This document shows, in pieces, positions 8,595 through 42,195 of a DNA stretch of 64,000 nt. The position numbers were made by a program, and so were the translations under genes. Numbering within the stretch: position 1 is the first letter of the stretch; the number at the start of each line of letters is the position of its first letter. The notes under the pieces are model-generated. The model searched no databases. It saw nothing but the letters and a program-made list of their open reading frames with translations, and was not told the origin of the DNA. Origin of the DNA: Candidatus Magasanikiibacteriota bacterium (GTDB lineage: Bacteria > Patescibacteriota > Patescibacteriia > Magasanikbacterales > UBA922); assembly GCA_021648085.1 (NCBI GenBank), contig JAKITS010000001.1:196948-260947 (forward strand), given 5' to 3'.

Positions 8595-10640
8595 ATGAGT
8601 TCAATAAAGAAGAAGTTGCGTGCAAAGACAAGGTGGGGAGTGATAGGAATTTTTGTGTTACTTTTGGCGACAGTTATTTTTGACGCGCCAAACTTGTTCA
8701 ACGGTTGGGTAGAAAGTATAAATAATAAAACAGGAATTGGAATCCCAATGGTTTTGGACAAGGAGTTTGCTTTAGGGTTAGACCTTCAAGGTGGAGCCCA
8801 TCTTGTATATCAAGCTGATGTTAGTCAGATAGATGTGGAAGATCGTGGCGATGCAGTAGAAGGTGTGAGAGATGTAATTGAAAGGCGTGTAAACGCAATT
8901 GGTGTGGGAGAGCCAAATGTACAAACAACAAAAGTTGGAGAAGATTATCGTGTAATTGTAGAATTACCAGGTGTCACAGATATACAAGAAGCAAAAGATA
9001 AAATTGGCGAGACTCCAATTTTGGAATTTAAAAAAGAAAACATAATTCCTCCGCGTGAACTAACAGAAGAGGAGAGAATAGAAATGGACGAGTTTAATAA
9101 AATAGCTCGTAAAAAAGCAGAAGGATATTTAACAGAAATTAAAAACGGTACAGACTTTGAAGAGTTTGCGGAGCAAAATTCAGAAGATGAACTAAGCAGA
9201 AATAATGGTGGATATTTAGGGTTTATTTCTAGTGTTGGTCCTTATGCAGATTTGTACAGTTGGGCTAGCTCTGTAAGCGATGGTTCTGTATCTCAAGAAT
9301 TACTAGAAACAAATCAAGGTTTTGCAATTGCAAAAAGAGGTGGGTCTACAGATGGGGATATGGAGGTTCGTGCAAGTCATATTTTGATTTGTTATCTAGG
9401 TGCTTCTAGGTGTGAGGGTGCGAATTATACAAAAACAGAAGCGTTGGCAAAAGCACAGAAAATTTTTGAGCAGGCAAATGCTGATAATTTTGCAGATTTA
9501 GCAATCCAATGGTCCACAGATCCAGGTTCAAAGGAAAATGGTGGAGATCTTGGGTTTTTTCCAAAAGAGGCAATGGTAGGCGATTTTGGAGAAGCTTCGT
9601 TTAATGCGAGTGTTGGAGAAATAGTGGGTCCAGTAGAAACTCAATACGGTTTTCATATAATTTATAAAACAGATGAAAAAATAAACCAAAACATAGAAGC
9701 TTGGTATTTGGTAGTCAGCACAAAATCAGAATTAGATATTTTACCACCACAAGATCCGTGGATGAATACAGGACTTTCTGGAAAACAATTGGAAAGAGCC
9801 GAGGTTGTAAGTAATCCAAACACTGGGGCTGTTCAAGTTTCACTTCAGTTTGATTCTGAAGGAACAGAATTATTTAAAAATATAACTACTGAAAATGTTG
9901 GAAAGCCGATTGCGATTTATTTGGACGGTGAGCCGATAAGTATCCCAAGAGTAAATGAGCCTATCACAGACGGTAGTGCTGTAATTAGTGGAAGTTTCAA
10001 CATTACAGAAGCAGGACTACTTTCACAAAGATTAAACGCTGGTGCACTTCCTGTTCCTGTTGAGATAATATCTCAACAAACAGTTGGTGCGACACTAGGT
10101 ATAGAATCTATGCAAAAAAGTTTGAAAGCTGCAGCGATTGCAATAGTACTGGTTATGATATTTATGATTGTGTACTATCGTATTCCTGGGTTAATTTCTG
10201 TTATTTCTTTATCACTTTATATATCACTTACACTTGCTTTGTTCAAGCTTATCGGTGTTACACTTACTTTGGCTGGAATTGCAGGTTTTGTACTTTCAAT
10301 TGGAATGGCTGTGGATGCAAATGTTCTTATATTTGAGAGGTTAAAAGAAGAGTTGAAATTGGGAAAGAGTTTGAAAACTGCCACAGAAGAAGGGTTTATT
10401 CGCGCTTGGAGCTCTATTCGAGATGGAAACATATCAACACTTATTACTTGTGCGCTACTTATTATGCTTGGTACAAGTTTTGTAAAAGGTTTTGCTATTA
10501 CACTTGGAATTGGTATATTTGTAAGTTTGTTCACAGCAATTACTGTCACAAGAGTTTTATTGAGATATATAGCTCCTTGGTTCAAAGAAAAAGGGAATAT
10601 GTTATTTTTAGGATATAGACCAAATAAAGATGCAAAATAA
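8595..10640 (+). CDS. secD: protein translocase subunit SecD with tandem parvulin-type PPIase domains inserted in the periplasmic P1 region
   Basis: MSSIKKKLRAKTRWGVIGIFVLLL TM1, LGLDLQGGAHLVYQ, P1 base (RVIVELPGV..ETPILEFK), then two parvulin-like units (..NGGYLGF.. and HILICYL..GGDLGFFPKEAMVGDFGEA..PVETQYGFHIIY), then conserved SecD end and TM bundle. ORF track start 8580; Met at 8595 preferred. Confidence 0.85.
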   Translation: MSSIKKKLRAKTRWGVIGIFVLLLATVIFDAPNLFNGWVESINNKTGIGIPMVLDKEFALGLDLQGGAHLVYQADVSQIDVEDRGDAVEGVRDVIERRVNAIGVGEPNVQTTKVGEDYRVIVELPGVTDIQEAKDKIGETPILEFKKENIIPPRELTEEERIEMDEFNKIARKKAEGYLTEIKNGTDFEEFAEQNSEDELSRNNGGYLGFISSVGPYADLYSWASSVSDGSVSQELLETNQGFAIAKRGGSTDGDMEVRASHILICYLGASRCEGANYTKTEALAKAQKIFEQANADNFADLAIQWSTDPGSKENGGDLGFFPKEAMVGDFGEASFNASVGEIVGPVETQYGFHIIYKTDEKINQNIEAWYLVVSTKSELDILPPQDPWMNTGLSGKQLERAEVVSNPNTGAVQVSLQFDSEGTELFKNITTENVGKPIAIYLDGEPISIPRVNEPITDGSAVISGSFNITEAGLLSQRLNAGALPVPVEIISQQTVGATLGIESMQKSLKAAAIAIVLVMIFMIVYYRIPGLISVISLSLYISLTLALFKLIGVTLTLAGIAGFVLSIGMAVDANVLIFERLKEELKLGKSLKTATEEGFIRAWSSIRDGNISTLITCALLIMLGTSFVKGFAITLGIGIFVSLFTAITVTRVLLRYIAPWFKEKGNMLFLGYRPNKDAK

Positions 10641-11556
10641 ATATATGAAAAAGAACTTTAAAATTGTAGATTATAGAAAGGTTAGTTTTACTTTTTCAGC
10701 TGTTATTGTTGGAATAAGTATAATTTTGCTTGCAGTGTTTGGTCTAAAACCAGGAATAGACTTTGCTGGCGGATCACTTATGGAGTTTGAGTTTGCGACA
10801 GAGCGACCAAACAACTCAGAGATAATGGAAGTTCTGGAAGGTTATGAAAGTGTAGCTGTTCAATCTGTGGATGAAAAAGGTGTTCTGATAAAAATGAAAT
10901 TTATTGGTGAGGAAGAACACAAAGATATATTGGAAAAAGTTAGGGCAAGTTTTGAAACAGAAGAAAATAGAGTTTTGGAACAGCGTTTTGAAACTATTGG
11001 ACCAACTATCAGTACACAGCTTAGAGAAAGGTCTGTTTATATTATTCTGACAGTTATAATCGCTATAGTTTTGTATGTGGCCTACGCCTTTAGAAGAGTT
11101 TCAAGACCGATCCAATCTTGGAAGTATGGTGTTTCTGCTATTATTGCATTGGTTCACGATGTTATTATTACTTTGGGTATATTTGCAATTTTAGGTAGGT
11201 ATTTTGGAGTAGAAATAAATGTGGCGTTTGTGGTGGCATTAATGACAATTTTAGGTTATTCTGTAAACGACTCTATTGTTGTATTCGATCGTGTTCGTGA
11301 AAATCTTATTAAAAAAGGAAGTGACAGATTTGTGGAATCTATCAATCAAGGTGTGCAAGATACAATCCCGCGCTCAATAAATACTTCTGCTACAACACTT
11401 TTAGTGTTAACAGCATTATTCTTGTTTGGTGGAGAGTCAATCCATTACTTCTCACTTGCACTTATAATTGGAATTTTGACTGGAACATATTCTTCAATAT
11501 TCTTAGCAGCACCGCTTTTGGCGACTTGGCAAGATTTGGCAAAACGAAAAAAGTAA
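10630..11556 (+). CDS. secF: protein translocase subunit SecF
   Basis: 308 aa, 6-TM SecF pattern, overlaps secD stop (alternative start 10645 MKKNFKIV). Confidence 0.85.
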   Translation: MQNKYMKKNFKIVDYRKVSFTFSAVIVGISIILLAVFGLKPGIDFAGGSLMEFEFATERPNNSEIMEVLEGYESVAVQSVDEKGVLIKMKFIGEEEHKDILEKVRASFETEENRVLEQRFETIGPTISTQLRERSVYIILTVIIAIVLYVAYAFRRVSRPIQSWKYGVSAIIALVHDVIITLGIFAILGRYFGVEINVAFVVALMTILGYSVNDSIVVFDRVRENLIKKGSDRFVESINQGVQDTIPRSINTSATTLLVLTALFLFGGESIHYFSLALIIGILTGTYSSIFLAAPLLATWQDLAKRKK

Positions 11557-34595: not shown

Positions 34596-35291
34596 ATGCA
34601 TATTTTTCTGGATGAAAGTGGACAATTTCATAAAAACGATTCAGAGGACTATTTTGTAATAGGCTCTTTTACTGTTGGGGATCACAAAAGAACCAAAAAA
34701 AGATTTAAATCTTGGTCTAAAGATAAATTTCCTAAAAAAATAAGATTTAGACCTGAAATAAAGTTTTCTGATTCTGGTATTTCTGATGAATTAAGAATTA
34801 AAACAGTTAAATTTATTTCTAAGTTAGATGTTAGGATTCGTTTTTCTTTTTTGAAAAGGCAAAATATACCAGAAGAATACAAAAGAAAAGAGAAAATTCA
34901 AACGGGCTTACTTTATACAAAAATAGTTGCAGAAACATTGGAAATGTATACTTCTTCTGCAAGTGATCTATTATTTCATGTTTTTTGTGATCAAAGAAAA
35001 TTAAAAGGTGTAAGTAAGAAAGAATTTGTAAATAACATAAAAATTCATTTATTACCTAGTTTGCCAAGCGGTGCAAATATTAAAATAGAAAGAGTTAATT
35101 CAAGAGATTTTCCAAATGTTCAATTAGCAGACTGGATTGTTGGTGTTATAGCATCTTATTTAAATAAAAAACCGTTAGGAGAGGAATTATTTGGTATTTT
35201 GCAAAATAATATTCTTGCTGAAGGAAGAGAAATGTTTAAAGATTATTGGGAAAATAAATTTAACAACCAAAAAACTCAATCGGGGGATTGA
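34596..35291 (+). CDS. DUF3800 family protein
   Basis: MHIFLDESG N-terminus and ..VQLADWIVG.. C-terminal motif characteristic of DUF3800. Confidence 0.6.
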   Translation: MHIFLDESGQFHKNDSEDYFVIGSFTVGDHKRTKKRFKSWSKDKFPKKIRFRPEIKFSDSGISDELRIKTVKFISKLDVRIRFSFLKRQNIPEEYKRKEKIQTGLLYTKIVAETLEMYTSSASDLLFHVFCDQRKLKGVSKKEFVNNIKIHLLPSLPSGANIKIERVNSRDFPNVQLADWIVGVIASYLNKKPLGEELFGILQNNILAEGREMFKDYWENKFNNQKTQSGD

Positions 35292-35557
35292 GGTGTTTGG
35301 TGAAGTAGCGTCTAACATTATGGTATTCCTTAGCTTAAGTCTCAGATGGTCTGAGGGAATACTAAGGCATAAATGAAAGTTATTATTGCATACTTCAATT
35401 TCAATATACTACAATGTCGTGCATTTGTCAAAGTTATCCACAGTTTTAAGTATAATTATAAAAATAAAACAACTTATAAATAAAAAATATTGGAATTAAA
35501 ATTTTCAATATTTTTGCTTTTAAGGTAAAGTAGAAGAACATTTTAAATAAAAATTTT

Positions 35558-38500
35558 ATGGGTGGTGAATATAACAATTTAGTTTTGGAGTATCTTAATA
35601 ATGTTCAAAAGATATTAGATACTGGAGATGCACGTGAGCATACTTATAGATCTGATTTCAAGATATTGATTGAAAGTTTAGTTTCAAATATTCAGGCAAT
35701 AAATGAGCCAGCCTATACAGGTGGAAATGCGCCTGATTTTTTGTTTAAAAAAGGTGATACACCAATTGCTTATGCAGAGTGCAAGGATGTGACGGTAGAT
35801 ATAAAAAATACAGATACACAAAAACAGGCAAAACGTTATGCAGATGCTTTTGGGAAAATTTTACTTACAAATTATTATGATTTTCAATTTATTCCAGAAG
35901 AGGGAGAAAAAATATCTGTTTCAATTGCGGTAAAAGAGGAAAATAAAATTGTACCAACAGAAGAAAATTTTGATAAATTCGTAAATTTGATTCAGGATTA
36001 TATAACTCCGTCTTATAGAACAATTAAATCTGCAAAAAGATTGGCAGAAATAATGGCAAGTAAAGCGCGGATTATTCGTGACAATGCTTTGGCTTCACTT
36101 AGTGAAAATAAAGACTCAGACATTTTTGCTCAATACGAATCATTTAAACAAGTTCTTATTCGTGATCTTTCGGAAAATGAGTTTGCGGATATGTATGCTC
36201 AAACTCTTGTTTATGGGTTGTTTGTGGCTCGTTATTATGATAAAACAGAGAAAGATTTTTCTCGTCACGAAGCTCAAGATTTATTACCTTCATCCAATCC
36301 ACTTTTGAAAAAGTTTTTTGGACATGTGGCTGGCACAGATTATGATCCCAAAATTGCGTGGTTGGTAGATAGTTTGATAGAAACTTATTCGTCTACAAGT
36401 GTAGCATATATAATGCACAAAGAGTTTGAGAAAAAACAAAAAGATCCTGTTCTTCATTTTTATGAAACTTTTTTGACTAGTTATGACAAAGGACTTCGTA
36501 AAAAAAGAGGAGTGTATTATACGCCCGAGCCGGTAGTTTCTTTTATTGTTCGTAGTGTGGACCAGATTTTAAAAACTAAATTTGGTTTAAGTAAAGGACT
36601 TGCTGATACCACAAAAATAGAATATAAAGCCAAAGTTCAAGGAGAAGATGGTAGAACAAAAGATAACGTAAAAAGGATAATAAAACAAACATATAAAGTA
36701 CAAATTCTAGATCCTGCGGTAGGAACTGGTACATTTTTAAATGAAGTAATTCATGAAATACACAAAAAATTTGTTGGACAAGAAGGTCAGTGGGATTCTT
36801 ATGTTCGAGATAGCTTACTTTCGCGTTTGCACGGTTTTGAGCTGATGATGGCAAGTTATACTATGGCTCACCTTAAACTTGGGATTACGCTAAAAGAACT
36901 TGGTTATAAAGGAGATGAAAGGCTGTCTGTATGGCTTACTAATAGCTTAGAAGGTGCAATAGATAAAATACCCGATCTTTTTATGGGGCAATGGCTAACA
37001 AAAGAATCAAACCAAGCTTCAAAAATTAAATCTGAAATGCCAATTATGGTTGTGTTGGGTAATCCTCCTTATTCTGGTGAAAGTTCTAATAAAAATTATA
37101 AAGGACATAATGTTTATAAAGTAGAACCGGGAGGGAATCAAAAACTTCAAGAGCGAAATTCGAAATGGCTTAACGATGATTATGTAAAATTTATTCGTTT
37201 TGCTGAAAATCAAATAGAAAAAACGGGAGAAGGAATTGTAAGCTTTATCACACCTCATGGATATTTAGATAATCCAACTTTCAGAGGTATGCGTTGGCAT
37301 TTAATGGAAACTTTTAGTGAAATTTATGTTTTAGATTTGCATGGGAATGCAAATAAAAACGAGACAACTTCTGAAGGAGGAAAAGATGAAAATGTCTTTG
37401 GAATTAAAACAGGAACTTCTATAATTTTTGCAATAAAAAATAAAAATTCAAAAAACAAAACTGCAAAAGTTTACCATGCTGATTTTTATGGAAAACAAAA
37501 TAAAAAATATAATTTATTAAATGAAAATAATTGGGAATCTATAAAATGGAAAAAATTATCTCCAAATAAACCAAATCTTTATTTTATACCGTTTAATAAC
37601 GAGTTGAAAAAAGAATATAATGAAGGTTTTTCAATTGTAGATTTAATGGAAACAAATTCAGTAGGTATTGTGACTTCTCGCGATAAATTTATTATCAATA
37701 ATTCAAGAGAAAAACTTATAATTAAAATAAAAGATTTTTTAATGCTTGATCCTGATAAAGCAAAACAAAAATATAATTTACGAGAAAACCAAAACTGGAA
37801 AATTATAAAGGCACAAAAACATATTTTTGATGAAAAAAATCTTCAAAAAATTTCCTATCGCCCGTTTGATAATAGGTGGATATATTATCATAATGATTTT
37901 ATCGAGCGTTCTAGAAAAGAAACAATGAAACATTTTAATAATAAAAATAATGTAGGATTAGTTTTGTGTAGGCAGGTTAAAGCTGGTAAATCATATCAAC
38001 ATAATTTTATAACTAACAATATTACAGAATCAACATTGGTTTCTAATAAAACATCAGAAATTGGATATGTATTTCCTTTATATTCTTATGTAAATGATAG
38101 CATCAAAAATTATAATTTTAACATAGACATAATAGGAGAAATTAAAAATAAAGTTGGAGCCACTTTAGTATCACGTAGTTCAAATAATCCAACTCTACAA
38201 ATTACTGATGGTAGTATTTTTACACCAGAAAATATTTTGGATTATATTTATGCAGTTCTTCATTCTCCAAAATATCGTGAAAAATACAAAGAATTTTTGA
38301 AAATAGATTTCCCCCGTGTTCCATATCCAGAAAATAAGCAAAAATTTTGGAATTTAGTTGGGTTAGGAAAAGAATTGAGAGAATTGCATTTATTAGAATC
38401 TCCAAAAGTTTCAAATTTTATCACAACTTTCCCAGAAAGTGGTTCAAATAAAGTTGAAAAGAAATATCCAAAATACGAAGATGAAAAAGTATTTATAAAT

Positions 38501-38692
38501 TATACTCAATATTTTGGCAATGTTCCAGAAGTTGCCTGGAACTTCTACATCGGCGGATACCAACCAGCCCAAAAATGGCTCAAAGACCGCCGAGAACGAG
38601 AACTAAGCAATGAAGACATAGATCACTACCAAGAAATGATAGTCTCCCTAACCGAAACCCACCGAATTATGCAGGAAATTGATAAAGTTTAA
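35558..38692 (+). CDS. Type IIL/IIG restriction-modification enzyme (MmeI-like; fused PD-ExK nuclease, N6-adenine methyltransferase and specificity domain)
   Basis: N-terminal D..ExK (NAPDFLFKKGDTPIAYAECKD), AdoMet motif I ILDPAVGTGTFL, motif IV VLGNPPYSG, about 400-aa C-terminal target-recognition region; no helicase domain. Confidence 0.75.
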   Translation: MGGEYNNLVLEYLNNVQKILDTGDAREHTYRSDFKILIESLVSNIQAINEPAYTGGNAPDFLFKKGDTPIAYAECKDVTVDIKNTDTQKQAKRYADAFGKILLTNYYDFQFIPEEGEKISVSIAVKEENKIVPTEENFDKFVNLIQDYITPSYRTIKSAKRLAEIMASKARIIRDNALASLSENKDSDIFAQYESFKQVLIRDLSENEFADMYAQTLVYGLFVARYYDKTEKDFSRHEAQDLLPSSNPLLKKFFGHVAGTDYDPKIAWLVDSLIETYSSTSVAYIMHKEFEKKQKDPVLHFYETFLTSYDKGLRKKRGVYYTPEPVVSFIVRSVDQILKTKFGLSKGLADTTKIEYKAKVQGEDGRTKDNVKRIIKQTYKVQILDPAVGTGTFLNEVIHEIHKKFVGQEGQWDSYVRDSLLSRLHGFELMMASYTMAHLKLGITLKELGYKGDERLSVWLTNSLEGAIDKIPDLFMGQWLTKESNQASKIKSEMPIMVVLGNPPYSGESSNKNYKGHNVYKVEPGGNQKLQERNSKWLNDDYVKFIRFAENQIEKTGEGIVSFITPHGYLDNPTFRGMRWHLMETFSEIYVLDLHGNANKNETTSEGGKDENVFGIKTGTSIIFAIKNKNSKNKTAKVYHADFYGKQNKKYNLLNENNWESIKWKKLSPNKPNLYFIPFNNELKKEYNEGFSIVDLMETNSVGIVTSRDKFIINNSREKLIIKIKDFLMLDPDKAKQKYNLRENQNWKIIKAQKHIFDEKNLQKISYRPFDNRWIYYHNDFIERSRKETMKHFNNKNNVGLVLCRQVKAGKSYQHNFITNNITESTLVSNKTSEIGYVFPLYSYVNDSIKNYNFNIDIIGEIKNKVGATLVSRSSNNPTLQITDGSIFTPENILDYIYAVLHSPKYREKYKEFLKIDFPRVPYPENKQKFWNLVGLGKELRELHLLESPKVSNFITTFPESGSNKVEKKYPKYEDEKVFINYTQYFGNVPEVAWNFYIGGYQPAQKWLKDRRERELSNEDIDHYQEMIVSLTETHRIMQEIDKV

Positions 38693-39317
38693 AATTGATA
38701 TGAAAAAAGAATTATATTATTTTCCTAATTGGGTTATAATTGACTATCTCTCCCATATTACTTCTAATAAAATACAAGATACTGATAATATTGAAATGAT
38801 ATGTTCTTTGGTCATGTCTAAATTTTGTGAAAGGCAATTTGGAAAAGAATGTTTTATAGGATTTGAGGTAAAGGAAAGTTATAAAAGAAAATTACCAAAA
38901 GATAATCTTATGTCTGAGCAAGATTTTATCAATCTTATAAAAGATGGTTTTTTTAAAGATACTCCAATAGATTTTTCTATTGCAATTCCTTCTAAAAAAG
39001 GCAGAATTGATTTTCAATTAAAAAGATTTGGGAAATCTTTAAAACAAAATAATACTAATGATTTAATTAATTATATTAACGACCTTTCAAAAGAATATGG
39101 AGATACTGATTGTAATTTAATAATACTCTGTGAATCTTGTGAAGTGAGTCCATTGACTGTATCTCAAAAAATTTGTATTAAAAATTACCCATTTAAAAAA
39201 ATAATTTTAATAGATGTGGAGGGGTCAAAATATATTTATTATCATGGTATATGGTCAGATAAGGGGGAAAGTGGAACATCAAGATTTAATATGCAAACGA
39301 TGAAATTTGATTATTAA
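38679..39317 (+). CDS. hypothetical protein, co-operonic with the RM enzyme
   Basis: 212 aa; start overlaps RM stop by 14 nt (alternative Met 38700); no recognised motif (weak D..EVK possibility). Confidence 0.5.
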   Translation: MIKFKIDMKKELYYFPNWVIIDYLSHITSNKIQDTDNIEMICSLVMSKFCERQFGKECFIGFEVKESYKRKLPKDNLMSEQDFINLIKDGFFKDTPIDFSIAIPSKKGRIDFQLKRFGKSLKQNNTNDLINYINDLSKEYGDTDCNLIILCESCEVSPLTVSQKICIKNYPFKKIILIDVEGSKYIYYHGIWSDKGESGTSRFNMQTMKFDY

Positions 39318-39332
39318 GGTTTTTTAAATAAT

Positions 39333-40067
39333 ATGAAATGTAGACTATGTAAAAAAGACAAAAGTTTAATAAAAGCACATATCATACCTAAAACTTTTTA
39401 TGATTTTCTTTATCCGTCAGATGATAATAGTTCTTTAATAATGGTTAGGAAAAATAAACATATTAAAAGAAGACCAGTTGGAAGTTATGACATGAATATA
39501 TTGTGTAAAGATTGCGATAGTGATCTTGGTTTATATGATGAATATGGTAAAAAAGTTTTTTTAGAAAAAAAATTAGAAAAACATCCACAGACTGAAAGCG
39601 CGTTTATAATTAGAGATGTGGATTATGAAAAATTAAGTTTTTTCATAATTTCCTTATTGTGGAGAGCTGGTATATCTTCTTTGGATGAGTATGGGTTTGT
39701 TCAATTAAATAAATATGAGGAAATATTGAGGGACATAATCTATAATAAAAAATATAAAAAGTTAATAGATTATCCGTTTATTATTACTCAATTTGAAAAA
39801 GATGGTTTAGATGGGATTGTGGATAAAAGTTTTCTTAATCCAGTTAAGTTATATATGGATAAAAGACGTTTTTATCTTTTTTATTTACCAAATTGTTATA
39901 GTATTTATATTAAAGTTGATAAACAAAAAATGCAAAGTAGTTTTTCAAAAATAGCTTTTAAAAAAGATGGTAATTTATTTATAATTAATAGGGGAAAGTA
40001 TAAAAACTCTAAAGAATTTAAATTAATTGTGGATATAGTTAAATCTGGATTTACGCCACAAACATAG
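39333..40067 (+). CDS. HNH-family endonuclease domain protein with about 180-aa C-terminal domain
   Basis: CRLCKKDKSLIKAHIIPK ... NILCKDCDSDLG = CxxC..H(I)IP..N..LCxxC HNH zinc-finger pattern; 15 nt after preceding gene. Confidence 0.6.
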   Translation: MKCRLCKKDKSLIKAHIIPKTFYDFLYPSDDNSSLIMVRKNKHIKRRPVGSYDMNILCKDCDSDLGLYDEYGKKVFLEKKLEKHPQTESAFIIRDVDYEKLSFFIISLLWRAGISSLDEYGFVQLNKYEEILRDIIYNKKYKKLIDYPFIITQFEKDGLDGIVDKSFLNPVKLYMDKRRFYLFYLPNCYSIYIKVDKQKMQSSFSKIAFKKDGNLFIINRGKYKNSKEFKLIVDIVKSGFTPQT

Positions 40068-40202
40068 AATTGATTAAAAAATATGAATACAACAATAATA
40101 CAATCAGCACCAAATCAATATAATATAATGTTAATGAATTACGCAGAAATTGTTGAAAAGACTAATTAGCAATTAAGTTTTTGGTTTAATCCTTATGCTA
40201 TT

Positions 40203-40676
40203 ATGGTAGCTGTTTTGGCTGTACTGTTTACTATTGGAGCGATTATTGCTGCGATTATTATTCATCTAAATAATAAAAAGCACAAACAGAGGACGGAAGA
40301 CTTTTTTAAAGAACAAGAGATAATTTATAAAAAAAGACAAGAAGAGATTAAAAAAGATTTTGATATTTTAATTAAAGTAAAAGAAAAAGAATATAGAAAA
40401 GCAGAAAAAAAAGACAGAAAAGAAATAAAAAAAGAAATTATAGAATTGAAGAAAGATAAAATATCCATAGGTTTTTATAGGATACCCGAAGCCGTGGAAG
40501 ATAGCATTAATAATATTAGAAGTAAATATGGAGTTGGATATAGAATTTGTAAAACTAAATGTTTTGGCTGTAAAGAAAATTTTCAATATAAAGATGAAAC
40601 AATAAACAATATTGTACAGGTGGTAGGGAGTAAAAAAGTTTTCTGTCCTTATTGTGGGGCTGAAAATTTTATATAA
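40203..40676 (+). CDS. membrane-anchored coiled-coil protein with C-terminal zinc ribbon
   Basis: N-terminal TM, K/E-rich coiled coil, CKTKCFGC..x20..CPYCG. Confidence 0.5.
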   Translation: MVAVLAVLFTIGAIIAAIIIHLNNKKHKQRTEDFFKEQEIIYKKRQEEIKKDFDILIKVKEKEYRKAEKKDRKEIKKEIIELKKDKISIGFYRIPEAVEDSINNIRSKYGVGYRICKTKCFGCKENFQYKDETINNIVQVVGSKKVFCPYCGAENFI

Positions 40677-40725: not shown

Positions 40726-40869
40726 CTACTTTTTCTGTTTCTTTTTTGGTGCACGCTGTGACATTGCACTTCCTGCTGCTGTTTTAGAATGTTTACTTGT
40801 TCTTTTATCTCTAAGAACTTTGCTTGCAGCTTTGCCAGCTTTTTTGCTGGTTTTTCTGTTTTTTGCCAT
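40726..40869 (-). CDS. small lysine-rich basic protein (47 aa), not in ORF track
   Basis: Reverse-strand ATG 40867-40869 to TAG 40726-40728: MAKNRKTSKKAGKAASKVLRDKRTSKHSKTAAGSAMSQRAPKKKQKK; followed by terminator hairpin. Confidence 0.45.
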   Translation of the reverse strand: MAKNRKTSKKAGKAASKVLRDKRTSKHSKTAAGSAMSQRAPKKKQKK

Positions 40870-41022
40870 AATCTTTGTATTACAGATTAATAAAACTACC
40901 ATTTCAACTTTTAAGCATATTTTTTATGTATCCACGACAAACATAAAAAAGTGCAATAGTAATGATTTTAGTATATAAAGGATTGGTTTAAATGTCAAGA
41001 AAAATAAGACTTACTTAATTAT

Positions 41023-41049
41023 TGACAAAATAATATTTTATGGTATAAT
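41023..41049 (+). promoter_or_regulatory. putative sigma-70 promoter of lexA-like gene
   Basis: TTGACA(41023-41028)-15/16 bp-TATAAT(41044-41049). Confidence 0.4.
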
Positions 41050-41078: not shown

Positions 41079-41849
41079 ATGCACCATCTTCAAGAAAAAA
41101 TTCTCAATCTTTTGGAAACAAAAGATATTTCTGGTTTATCACTTAGAGAAATTGCCAAATTGATAAACGAAACAGGAAGTCCGCAAAAAATAAAACATCA
41201 TTTGGATCAGCTCGCAAAAAGAGGGCTTATTTTTGTGGACAAAAAAAATAAAGAAATTAAAAAAATAAAACCCGGAATGGACAAAAAAACTCAAATTATT
41301 TCTTTGCCTATTTTGGGAAGTGCAAATTGTGGTGTAGCGACATATTTTGCAGAAAATCATGTAGAAGGATATTTGAAAGTGACCAAAAATATTTTGGGCG
41401 AACTTGCCAAAAGAATCGAAAGCTTGTTTGTGTTACGTGCAGTTGGCTCTTCTATGAATCGTGCTAATATTCGTGGAAATAGTATTGAAGATGGAGATTA
41501 TGTGATTGTGGATAGTGAAAAAAAAGAGCTAGAAAGTGGTTTATATATGGTTTCTATTATTAATGATGTCGCAAATATAAAAAAAGTTTTTTTTGACAAA
41601 AAAAATAGGCAAATAGTTTTAATGTCTGAGTCAAACCAAGATATTACACCAATATATATACACAAAAAAGATTTAAATGAATATTTAATTGCTGGAACTG
41701 TGGTAAAAATTATGAAAAATCCCACAGAAGAAAATTTAAATATGTTTAGCGATATTTCTGCAATTGATTCTTTAAAAAATCTAGGTTCTTTGTCCAGTGA
41801 GGAAGAATCTTATTATAATAATGCTGATAATTTTAAGAAATATGCGTAA
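41079..41849 (+). CDS. LexA-like repressor (winged-helix DNA-binding domain + S24 peptidase domain)
   Basis: N-terminus LSLREIAKLINETGSPQKIKHHLDQLAKRGLIF resembles LexA DNA-binding domain; C-terminal AVGSSM..DGDYVIV..IKKV matches the S24 Ser/Lys dyad region; acidic C-terminal tail. Confidence 0.65.
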   Translation: MHHLQEKILNLLETKDISGLSLREIAKLINETGSPQKIKHHLDQLAKRGLIFVDKKNKEIKKIKPGMDKKTQIISLPILGSANCGVATYFAENHVEGYLKVTKNILGELAKRIESLFVLRAVGSSMNRANIRGNSIEDGDYVIVDSEKKELESGLYMVSIINDVANIKKVFFDKKNRQIVLMSESNQDITPIYIHKKDLNEYLIAGTVVKIMKNPTEENLNMFSDISAIDSLKNLGSLSSEEESYYNNADNFKKYA

Positions 41850-42195
41850 TCCGGATTTGAAACAAGGTGATATTTATTTAGTTGATTTTAGTGAAAATTC
41901 AGTTGGGCATGAGTATCAGAAAAAACGTCCTGCAATTATTATTCAATCAAATTTACAAATAAAAAAGTCAAATCTTGTGACAATTATGCCATTATCTACA
42001 AAATTGGATAAAGCTTTAAAAGAAGATATTTTGGTTGAAAAAGATAATAATAATTTATTATTACATGATTCTGTGATAAAAGTGCAACATATTATTTCTT
42101 TTGATCCTGTTAGATTTTCTCATAAAATTGGAGAGGTAAAAAAAGAAGTTCTTAGTGAAATTAAGAACTATTTAACCAAACACTTTGATTTGTAA
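41842..42195 (+). CDS. MazF/PemK family toxin (endoribonuclease)
   Basis: MRNPDLKQGDIYLVDFSENSVGHEYQKKRPAIIIQSN..VTIMPLSTK classic PemK/MazF signature; ORF track start 41797 but Met at 41842 overlaps the lexA-like stop by 8 nt (ATGCGTAA). Confidence 0.7.
   Translation: MRNPDLKQGDIYLVDFSENSVGHEYQKKRPAIIIQSNLQIKKSNLVTIMPLSTKLDKALKEDILVEKDNNNLLLHDSVIKVQHIISFDPVRFSHKIGEVKKEVLSEIKNYLTKHFDL

Follow-up and report, generated by a model that had tools for sequence, protein, structure and literature searches.

A Type IIG restriction-modification gene followed by two small candidate nuclease genes of unnamed families in a Candidatus Magasanikbacteria genome

We analysed a stretch of 64,000 nucleotides (nt), hereafter the window, which belongs to a 984-kb contig (JAKITS010000001.1, positions 196,948 to 260,947 of the forward strand) of a Candidatus Magasanikbacteria genome (Candidate Phyla Radiation, CPR; assembly GCA_021648085.1). 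In this window the gene of a 1044-amino-acid (aa) restriction-modification (RM) enzyme is followed on the same strand by two small genes, annotated at NCBI as the hypothetical proteins L3J07_01080 (205 aa) and L3J07_01085 (244 aa), whose families are referred to below as the 205 family and the 244 family (Table 1). A first-pass annotation had proposed that the three genes form a candidate novel defence module, in which a protein without a recognisable family and an HNH nuclease are joined in one operon to an MmeI-like Type IIL enzyme. The three open reading frames (ORFs) lie where they had been placed, at 35558-38692, 38679-39317 (212 aa from a TTG codon) and 39333-40067, all on the + strand, and the 15-nt gap ahead of the 244-aa gene was also given correctly. 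The reported 14-nt overlap with the RM gene does not hold, as it hinges on the TTG at 38679, and the true start is the ATG at 38700, which gives the first residue of the homologues P0017 and P0018 as well as of the protein annotated at NCBI (P0016, 205 aa); a gap of 7 nt thus separates the gene from the RM stop codon (38690-38692). The two small ORFs are genuine genes, with 15 homologues in a large protein collection for the 244-aa protein (E 1e-157 to 3e-15) and 138 cluster representatives for the 205-aa protein. A terminator scan of the + strand over 35558-40676 returned one terminator-like site only, at 35718-35735 inside the RM gene, and none between the RM, 205-aa and 244-aa genes. The layout behind the claim of co-transcription (tight same-strand spacing) was recovered, although the transcript itself, covering 35558-40676, is a plausible prediction only.

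Table 1. Genes and other features of the locus, in window coordinates
Feature	Position	Strand	Evidence and remarks
DUF3800 protein, 231 aa	34596..35291	+	upstream neighbour; Pfam PF12686 1.9e-11; PADLOC PDC-M04A 2.5e-9
Type IIG restriction-methyltransferase, 1044 aa	35558..38692	+	Pfam, PADLOC, motifs in the translation
205-aa PD-(D/E)xK-like family member	38700..39317	+	candidate catalytic residues E32, D91, Q106, K108
244-aa protein, patchy family	39333..40067	+	N-terminal Cys4/His HNH_5- or Endonuclease VII-like motif (C3, C6, H16, C58, C61, D62); invariant W110-R111
157-aa protein	40203..40676	+	N-terminal transmembrane helix, Lys/Glu-rich middle, C-terminal CxxC...CxxC zinc ribbon (sequence, hydropathy; weak zinc-ribbon matches only)
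Terminator-like hairpin and T-run	40834..40851	+	nearest + strand site of this kind beyond the RM gene
LexA-like helix-turn-helix/S24 peptidase gene (41079-41849) and MazF/PemK toxin gene (41797-42195)	41079..42195	+	Peptidase_S24 2.1e-14; PemK_toxin 2.5e-23

The three genes are not a conserved module. Profile hidden Markov models (HMMs) of both small families, together with the RM protein (phmmer), were run against every fetched locus and gave 30 loci for the 244 family, 13 for the 205 family and 3 for an RM homologue, with the combination occurring in the window only; the sample of the 205 family consisted of these 13 loci and one contig available as a gene list only. The closest homologues of the small proteins, P0002 (60% identity) and P0018 (49%), both originate from the metagenome sample SRR34217542, in which they sit on separate contigs with different neighbours. 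The proposal of a novel three-gene module did not withstand these comparisons, as homologues of both genes occur mostly away from RM genes: the 244 family is mostly solitary, and the 205 family is without an RM gene in 8 of 10 distinct contexts. We also considered a conserved pair of a PD-(D/E)xK gene and a 244-family gene and rejected it, since the genes that precede the 244-family members of Sphingomonas and Aurantiacibacter proved unrelated to the 205 family (BLASTP, hhalign).

The 1044-aa enzyme matched only Type_ISP_C (PF18135, 7e-85), N6_Mtase (2.9e-10) and MmeI_Mtase (3.3e-7) in Pfam at E ≤ 1, and the PADLOC model REase_MTase_IIG with E = 0 and 1018 bits. Like MmeI-family and Type ISP enzymes, it appears to unite nuclease, gamma-class N6-adenine methylase and specificity domain in one polypeptide. 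The label of an MmeI-like Type IIL enzyme was loosely right with regard to the weak MmeI_Mtase signal (30.2 bits, cut-off 27), but the C-terminus matches Type_ISP_C instead and no other MmeI-specific domain was matched, and the enzyme is better described as Type IIG, its C-terminal specificity domain being Type ISP-like. From Type ISP enzymes it differs in that no helicase module was matched next to the strong C-terminal domain match (same search and threshold). With no sign of a further MmeI domain or of a Type ISP helicase, the enzyme is most safely labelled Type IIG. The translation contains both an N-terminal P59-D60...E74-C-K76 nuclease motif and an NPPY methylase motif, and because these are intact, the protein is predicted to be a complete Type IIG enzyme that needs no partner, in agreement with the earlier description of such enzymes as self-sufficient single polypeptides. 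Its nearest homologues (59% identity) were found at three loci (L027, L028, and L029), where both small genes are missing. There the RM gene is followed after 4 nt by a gene that encodes at least 1490 aa, including superfamily 1 (SF1) helicase domains (AAA_11/AAA_12; L027 1123-13304) and preceded by a pair of genes for a Gabija-like OLD-family ATPase and a UvrD helicase, and these loci may represent a different pairing of RM enzyme and helicase. Ahead of the RM gene, the L027 region also holds a 440-aa ORF that looks by eye like a serine recombinase.

For the 205-aa protein no match was obtained in Pfam, NCBIfam, PHROGs or PADLOC, nor in the PDB by sequence, and the first-pass statement that it has no recognisable family was right as far as the curated families of Pfam, NCBIfam and PADLOC are concerned. 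A word-indexed search gave 1 homologue and an exhaustive profile search gave the 138 cluster representatives mentioned above, 67 of them at E ≤ 1e-10 and nearly all about 200 aa long, which makes this a genuine, conserved family of single-domain proteins. Across 65 aligned members, D91, Q106, and K108 never vary, E32 is near-invariant (at least 90%), and R109, Y133, P164, and F165 are nearly invariant, with (D/E)TPID...FQLKRFG as the core motif. The AlphaFold2 model (predicted local distance difference test score 92.7, predicted template modelling score 0.89) has the order alpha-beta-beta-beta-alpha-beta, in which E32 lies in helix 28-47, D91 starts strand 92-95, and Q106 and K108 lie in strand 102-110, which is followed by helix 119-132 and strand 139-144. 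Both the conservation of these residues and their placement on the modelled secondary structure agree with a PD-(D/E)xK catalytic motif, and the predicted order of elements is that of the canonical PD-(D/E)xK core, in which the third motif takes the variant form Q-x-K. A site of the E/D/QxK type is present in TnsA.

Compared with established members of the PD-(D/E)xK superfamily (CdiA-CT nuclease toxins, NucC, Type II restriction endonucleases), the 205-aa protein lacks a profile match (Pfam, NCBIfam, PDB), has a Gln in place of the middle acidic residue throughout its family, and possesses an extra C-terminal beta-sheet region at residues ~167-204. The 65 members showed no consistent Pfam match and no PADLOC match, a PDB profile search with the family gave hits with E > 0.2 only, and no fused domains were detected in the longer members. 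Domain searches found no modified-base reader (SRA, DUF262 or similar), no NTPase and no sensor domain in the family, and the family had no match in cultured phages, plasmids or IMG/VR. We regard it as probable that these proteins are a new PD-(D/E)xK-type nuclease family, with their activity predicted from motif and model. The two labels given in the first-pass annotation were in effect reversed, since the protein described as having no recognisable family carries a stronger nuclease assignment than the one described as a clear HNH nuclease.

This second, 244-aa protein had no curated match in Pfam, NCBIfam or PADLOC, and matched three PHROGs of unknown function, 19960 (4e-23), 7075 (2e-14), and 26326 (1e-10). 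The Cys/His pattern that led to the HNH label exists (C3xxC6...H16-I-I-P-K...C58xxC61-D62), but the Pfam model HNH_5 covers residues 3-20 only, with 17.4 bits against a cut-off of 27.5, and the model of the protein has no fold match. HNH_5 was likewise weak and below threshold in 8 of 15 family members, next to isolated matches to HNH_2 and Endonuclease_7. An hhalign comparison related the N-terminal 72 residues of the family to a 278-aa protein encoded at locus L006 (CxxC..DHVPPK..CADCN, E = 8e-4), and a comparison of the family with a canonical HNH protein gave no similarity. In T4 endonuclease VII (EndoVII), zinc is bound by C23, C26, C58, and C61, and N62 adjoins the last Cys. The layout CxxC-x9-H-I-I-P...CxxC-(D/E) of the 244-aa protein resembles that of HNH_5 (PF14279) and EndoVII domains, and differs from it by an insertion of ~40 residues between the His and the second CxxC and by an acidic residue where the metal-binding Asn stands. 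H16, W110, and R111 do not vary among the 34 non-redundant members; residue 62, with which helix 59-78 starts, is D or E throughout, and 33 of the 34 have D69. A confident whole-protein model had no fold match in the PDB, including solved HNH and EndoVII domains. The resemblance to HNH domains is real, though weak: an HNH-like assignment of the family is a reasonable hypothesis, and the label of a clear HNH nuclease goes too far. A relationship to DUF4238, considered from the H-x-x-P motif and a DUF4238 neighbour in Sphingomonas, was rejected at an hhalign probability of 0.3%.

With regard to genomic context, the RM-linked relative of the 205-aa protein outside the window is found in a Type I RM operon with the order hsdM, 205-family gene, hsdS, hsdR (L025 3152-11114); it is 36% identical to the window protein and overlaps hsdM by 4 nt. 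In the same operon the hsdS frame runs into a group II intron reverse transcriptase/maturase (882-aa ORF with Methylase_S, RVT_1, and GIIM), and a SNase-domain gene follows the operon. The gene of P0018 (L024) is flanked by a T5orf172 gene and by the gene of an HNH_repeat/HNH homing-type endonuclease; two of its neighbours, encoding a 437-aa HNH protein and a 207-aa protein, were tried as relatives of the 244 family and found to be unrelated. A Candidatus Buchananbacteria member lies directly after nrdD/nrdG, others lie after dnaK and beside an integrase gene, and one is located among small unknown ORFs three genes away from an AbiTii gene, while on two short contigs the neighbours were uninformative. 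The clusters of the 205 family that were looked up are mostly singletons. The idea of an RM accessory survives in a weaker form for this family, through the relative embedded between hsdM and hsdS, but not for the triad, which does not recur.

The 244 family stands alone in Moraniibacteriota, Chloroflexi, and Bdellovibrionales genomes, and one member follows SNF2 and SF1 helicase genes. One of the Chloroflexi genes (L023 8001-8722) is split into overlapping ORFs of 161 and 92 aa and is thus a frameshifted pseudogene or else misassembled. More distant relatives were found on 14 IMG/VR viral contigs, in Acinetobacter phages, and on alphaproteobacterial plasmids, and some loci of the family are prophage or phage early regions. 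On plasmid p150 of Sphingomonas sp. AAP5 (L008 1-12594), a dense defence island contains, in this order, genes for a Type ISP RM enzyme, a McrB-like AAA_5 protein, McrC, an unknown 243-aa protein and, overlapping by 4 nt, the 244-family member, beyond which lie a DUF4238 gene in the reverse orientation and an SbcCD-like exonuclease/ATPase pair; on an Aurantiacibacter plasmid the gene is located directly behind that of an Mrr-type endonuclease. In Thalassotalea atypica the homologue P0010 (10001-10750) is a single gene bounded by attC-like repeats at 9916-10012 and 10755-10858. It belongs to an array (L003 7400-20750) with ~25 small same-strand ORFs, an integrase-domain fragment at its edge, and 21 copies of a ~60-120-nt repeat with the ends TAACAAG...GCGTTA and a spacing of 310-1371 nt, which had no match to an Rfam family. 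By its sequence features this array looks like a sedentary chromosomal integron, and P0010, as one ORF between attC-like repeats, is a single cassette of it and hence a self-contained unit.

At L006 the 244-family gene P0015 (249 aa) is followed, with an overlap of 8 nt, by the gene of a SLATT_4 two-transmembrane effector. This effector gene stands between two distantly related HNH_5-like genes, those of P0015 and of the 278-aa protein (L006 1777-3872), and all of them overlap or abut, which suggests that the trio is a three-gene unit of its own. Small membrane proteins were noted downstream of 244-family genes at three places, in the window (40203-40676), at L006 (2519-3046), and in Moraniibacteriota (L019 1220-1435, a 72-aa zinc-ribbon/transmembrane protein). 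The other loci are without one, and a recurring small membrane partner was rejected.

We favour, with a probability of about 0.6, the reading that the locus consists of a Type IIG gene followed by two independent single-gene nuclease-type genes, which share its strand by chance within a cluster of defence-type genes. The units of this cluster would be the DUF3800 gene, the Type IIG RM gene, the PD-(D/E)xK-like gene, the HNH-like gene, the membrane/zinc-ribbon gene, and the LexA-like/MazF genes, and it would be happenstance that three of the genes have a strand and probably a transcript in common. The 205-aa protein would have E32/D91/Q106-x-K108 as its active site and would most likely be an autonomous Mg2+-dependent DNA endonuclease, whereas the 244-aa protein, also autonomous, would carry its HNH_5/EndoVII-like Cys/His motif (H16 and the acidic residue 62) in a compact unsolved fold. 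For both small proteins we infer nuclease activity as well as an anti-phage function, and it is reasonable to consider both genes plausible single-gene defence or selfish nuclease candidates. Neither is an already named system: both families are unnamed candidates because neither matches any model of PADLOC v2.0.0, the HEC and PDC candidates included.

Several points weigh against this reading. The gaps of 7 and 15 nt and the lack of a separating terminator make it probable that the genes are co-expressed, which fits a functional link as well, and the two RM-linked contexts among the 10 distinct ones of the 205 family (window counted) leave room for an RM-linked role. The 244-aa protein has no significant match to a fold or curated family, and C6, C58, and C61 are absent in 14 of the 34 members (the viral branch and P0012), so the four-cysteine site is not family-wide. 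In addition, the sample of contexts was small and made up mostly of short metagenomic contigs, and the anti-phage function of either family is a prediction from sequence.

The idea of independent genes beside an RM gene agrees with what is known from other bacteria. Independent defence genes inside or beside RM operons are an established pattern, which has been formalised as ‘guilt by embedding’ (Payne et al. 2024, doi 10.1101/2024.01.29.577857). Examples are TgvAB, a Type IV-like system that is part of a Type I RM cluster in Vibrio (PMC11411939), and PrrC in EcoprrI (PMC12707154), and genes embedded in this way mostly function without relying on the surrounding system (doi 10.1101/2024.01.29.577857; PMC11411939; PMC12707154). 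The genes described here share with them the small nuclease-type coding capacity, the common strand and the position within or behind RM genes, as illustrated by the 205-family member between hsdM and hsdS. They differ in that neither protein has a GmrSD or PrrC domain and in that most members of both families are found outside RM loci.

A more ambitious reading would see in the 205 family new stand-alone PD-(D/E)xK defence nucleases, restricted for the most part to uncultured lineages (e.g., CPR), which have lodged repeatedly in RM operons (Type IIG in the window, Type I in L025) as a complement or guardian of the RM enzyme. The 244-aa protein would, independently of this, be a single-gene anti-phage system of a new kind whose fold the PDB does not yet contain and which phages, plasmids, and integron cassettes have spread. 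As a whole we hold this reading to be tentative and on balance doubtful.

Another explanation is that one or both of the genes are selfish, free-standing homing-type endonucleases without a defence role, which spread by cutting empty sites and insert beside conserved or often-transferred genes, in this case at the 3' end of the RM gene. The patchy distribution of both families and the predominance of singletons among the 205-family clusters looked up would agree with such a lifestyle, and so would several of the neighbourhoods: the position of P0018 between T5orf172 and HNH_repeat/HNH homing-type genes, the group II intron reverse transcriptase inserted in the L025 operon, the frameshifted Chloroflexi copy of the 244 family, and a Moraniibacteriota 244-family gene that follows an ORF with an N-terminal GFIDGEGSF, LAGLIDADG-like by eye only. 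The nrd genes are a classic target region of phage homing endonucleases, and the Buchananbacteria member lies right behind nrdD/nrdG. However, this explanation draws no support from presence/absence polymorphism at any defined target site, and searches of both proteins found no separate DNA-binding module typical of homing enzymes (NUMOD, HNH_repeat). In addition, the 244 family is represented among integron cassettes and on plasmids within defence islands, where one expects cargo genes rather than homing elements. We consider a homing origin unlikely.

Still less probable, in our view, is a role linked to the RM enzyme, in which the 205-aa nuclease, alone or together with the 244-aa protein, would back it up either by restricting DNA whose modification lets it evade the Type IIG enzyme (a Type IV-like activity) or by being released when a phage inhibits the RM system, following the logic of PrrC. 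The transcript probably shared with the RM gene, the 4-nt overlap of the 36%-identical member with hsdM inside a Type I operon, and the embedded precedents (TgvAB, PMC11411939; PrrC, PMC12707154) speak for it. Against it stand the 8 distinct contexts without an RM gene, the closest RM homologues, which do without both small genes, and the lack of a detected modified-base reader, NTPase or sensor domain; compared with a PrrC-type guardian, the 205 family is embedded in an RM locus in 2 of 10 contexts, and no ATPase or PrrC domain was found in it. Finally, a lineage-restricted three-gene system with both small proteins as obligate accessories of this Type IIG enzyme is very improbable, as it has in its favour the arrangement in the window alone (one strand, short gaps, no separating terminator), no second instance was found in any collection searched, the closest homologues P0002 and P0018 lie apart within one sample, and the RM enzyme holds all motifs for acting alone.

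Around the three genes, the neighbourhood contains further genes of defence or toxin type, namely those of the DUF3800 protein, with its PDC-M04A match, and of the MazF toxin. PDC-M04A is a multi-gene defence candidate of PADLOC, and the DUF3800 protein also matched two PHROGs of unknown function; a hairpin is present at the end of its gene (35275-35292). The 157-aa gene may be the last gene of the RM transcription unit. The LexA-like and MazF genes, which overlap by 53 nt, are a separate unit at the edge of the neighbourhood, preceded by a sigma-70-like promoter at 41022-41049 (12/12 match with a TG extension). The NCBIfam lexA match of the first gene (5e-20) is below the cut-off, and the two may form a toxin-antitoxin pair whose antitoxin is replaced by a LexA-like repressor that cleaves itself. 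The guanine-cytosine (GC) content of the cluster genes (24-30%, compared to 32% for the window) is a weak sign of a foreign island, as some flanking housekeeping genes are as low, and no tRNA or integration-site markers were found around the cluster.

Had the first proposal been true, two accessory nucleases dedicated to one Type IIG enzyme would have amounted to a new RM architecture; the evidence speaks against it. The value that remains lies in two well-defined protein families that are absent from curated descriptions. The immune repertoire of CPR bacteria is poorly known, and both families are cheap single-gene candidates for assays of phage defence and toxicity, which would enlarge the catalogue of CPR defence genes.

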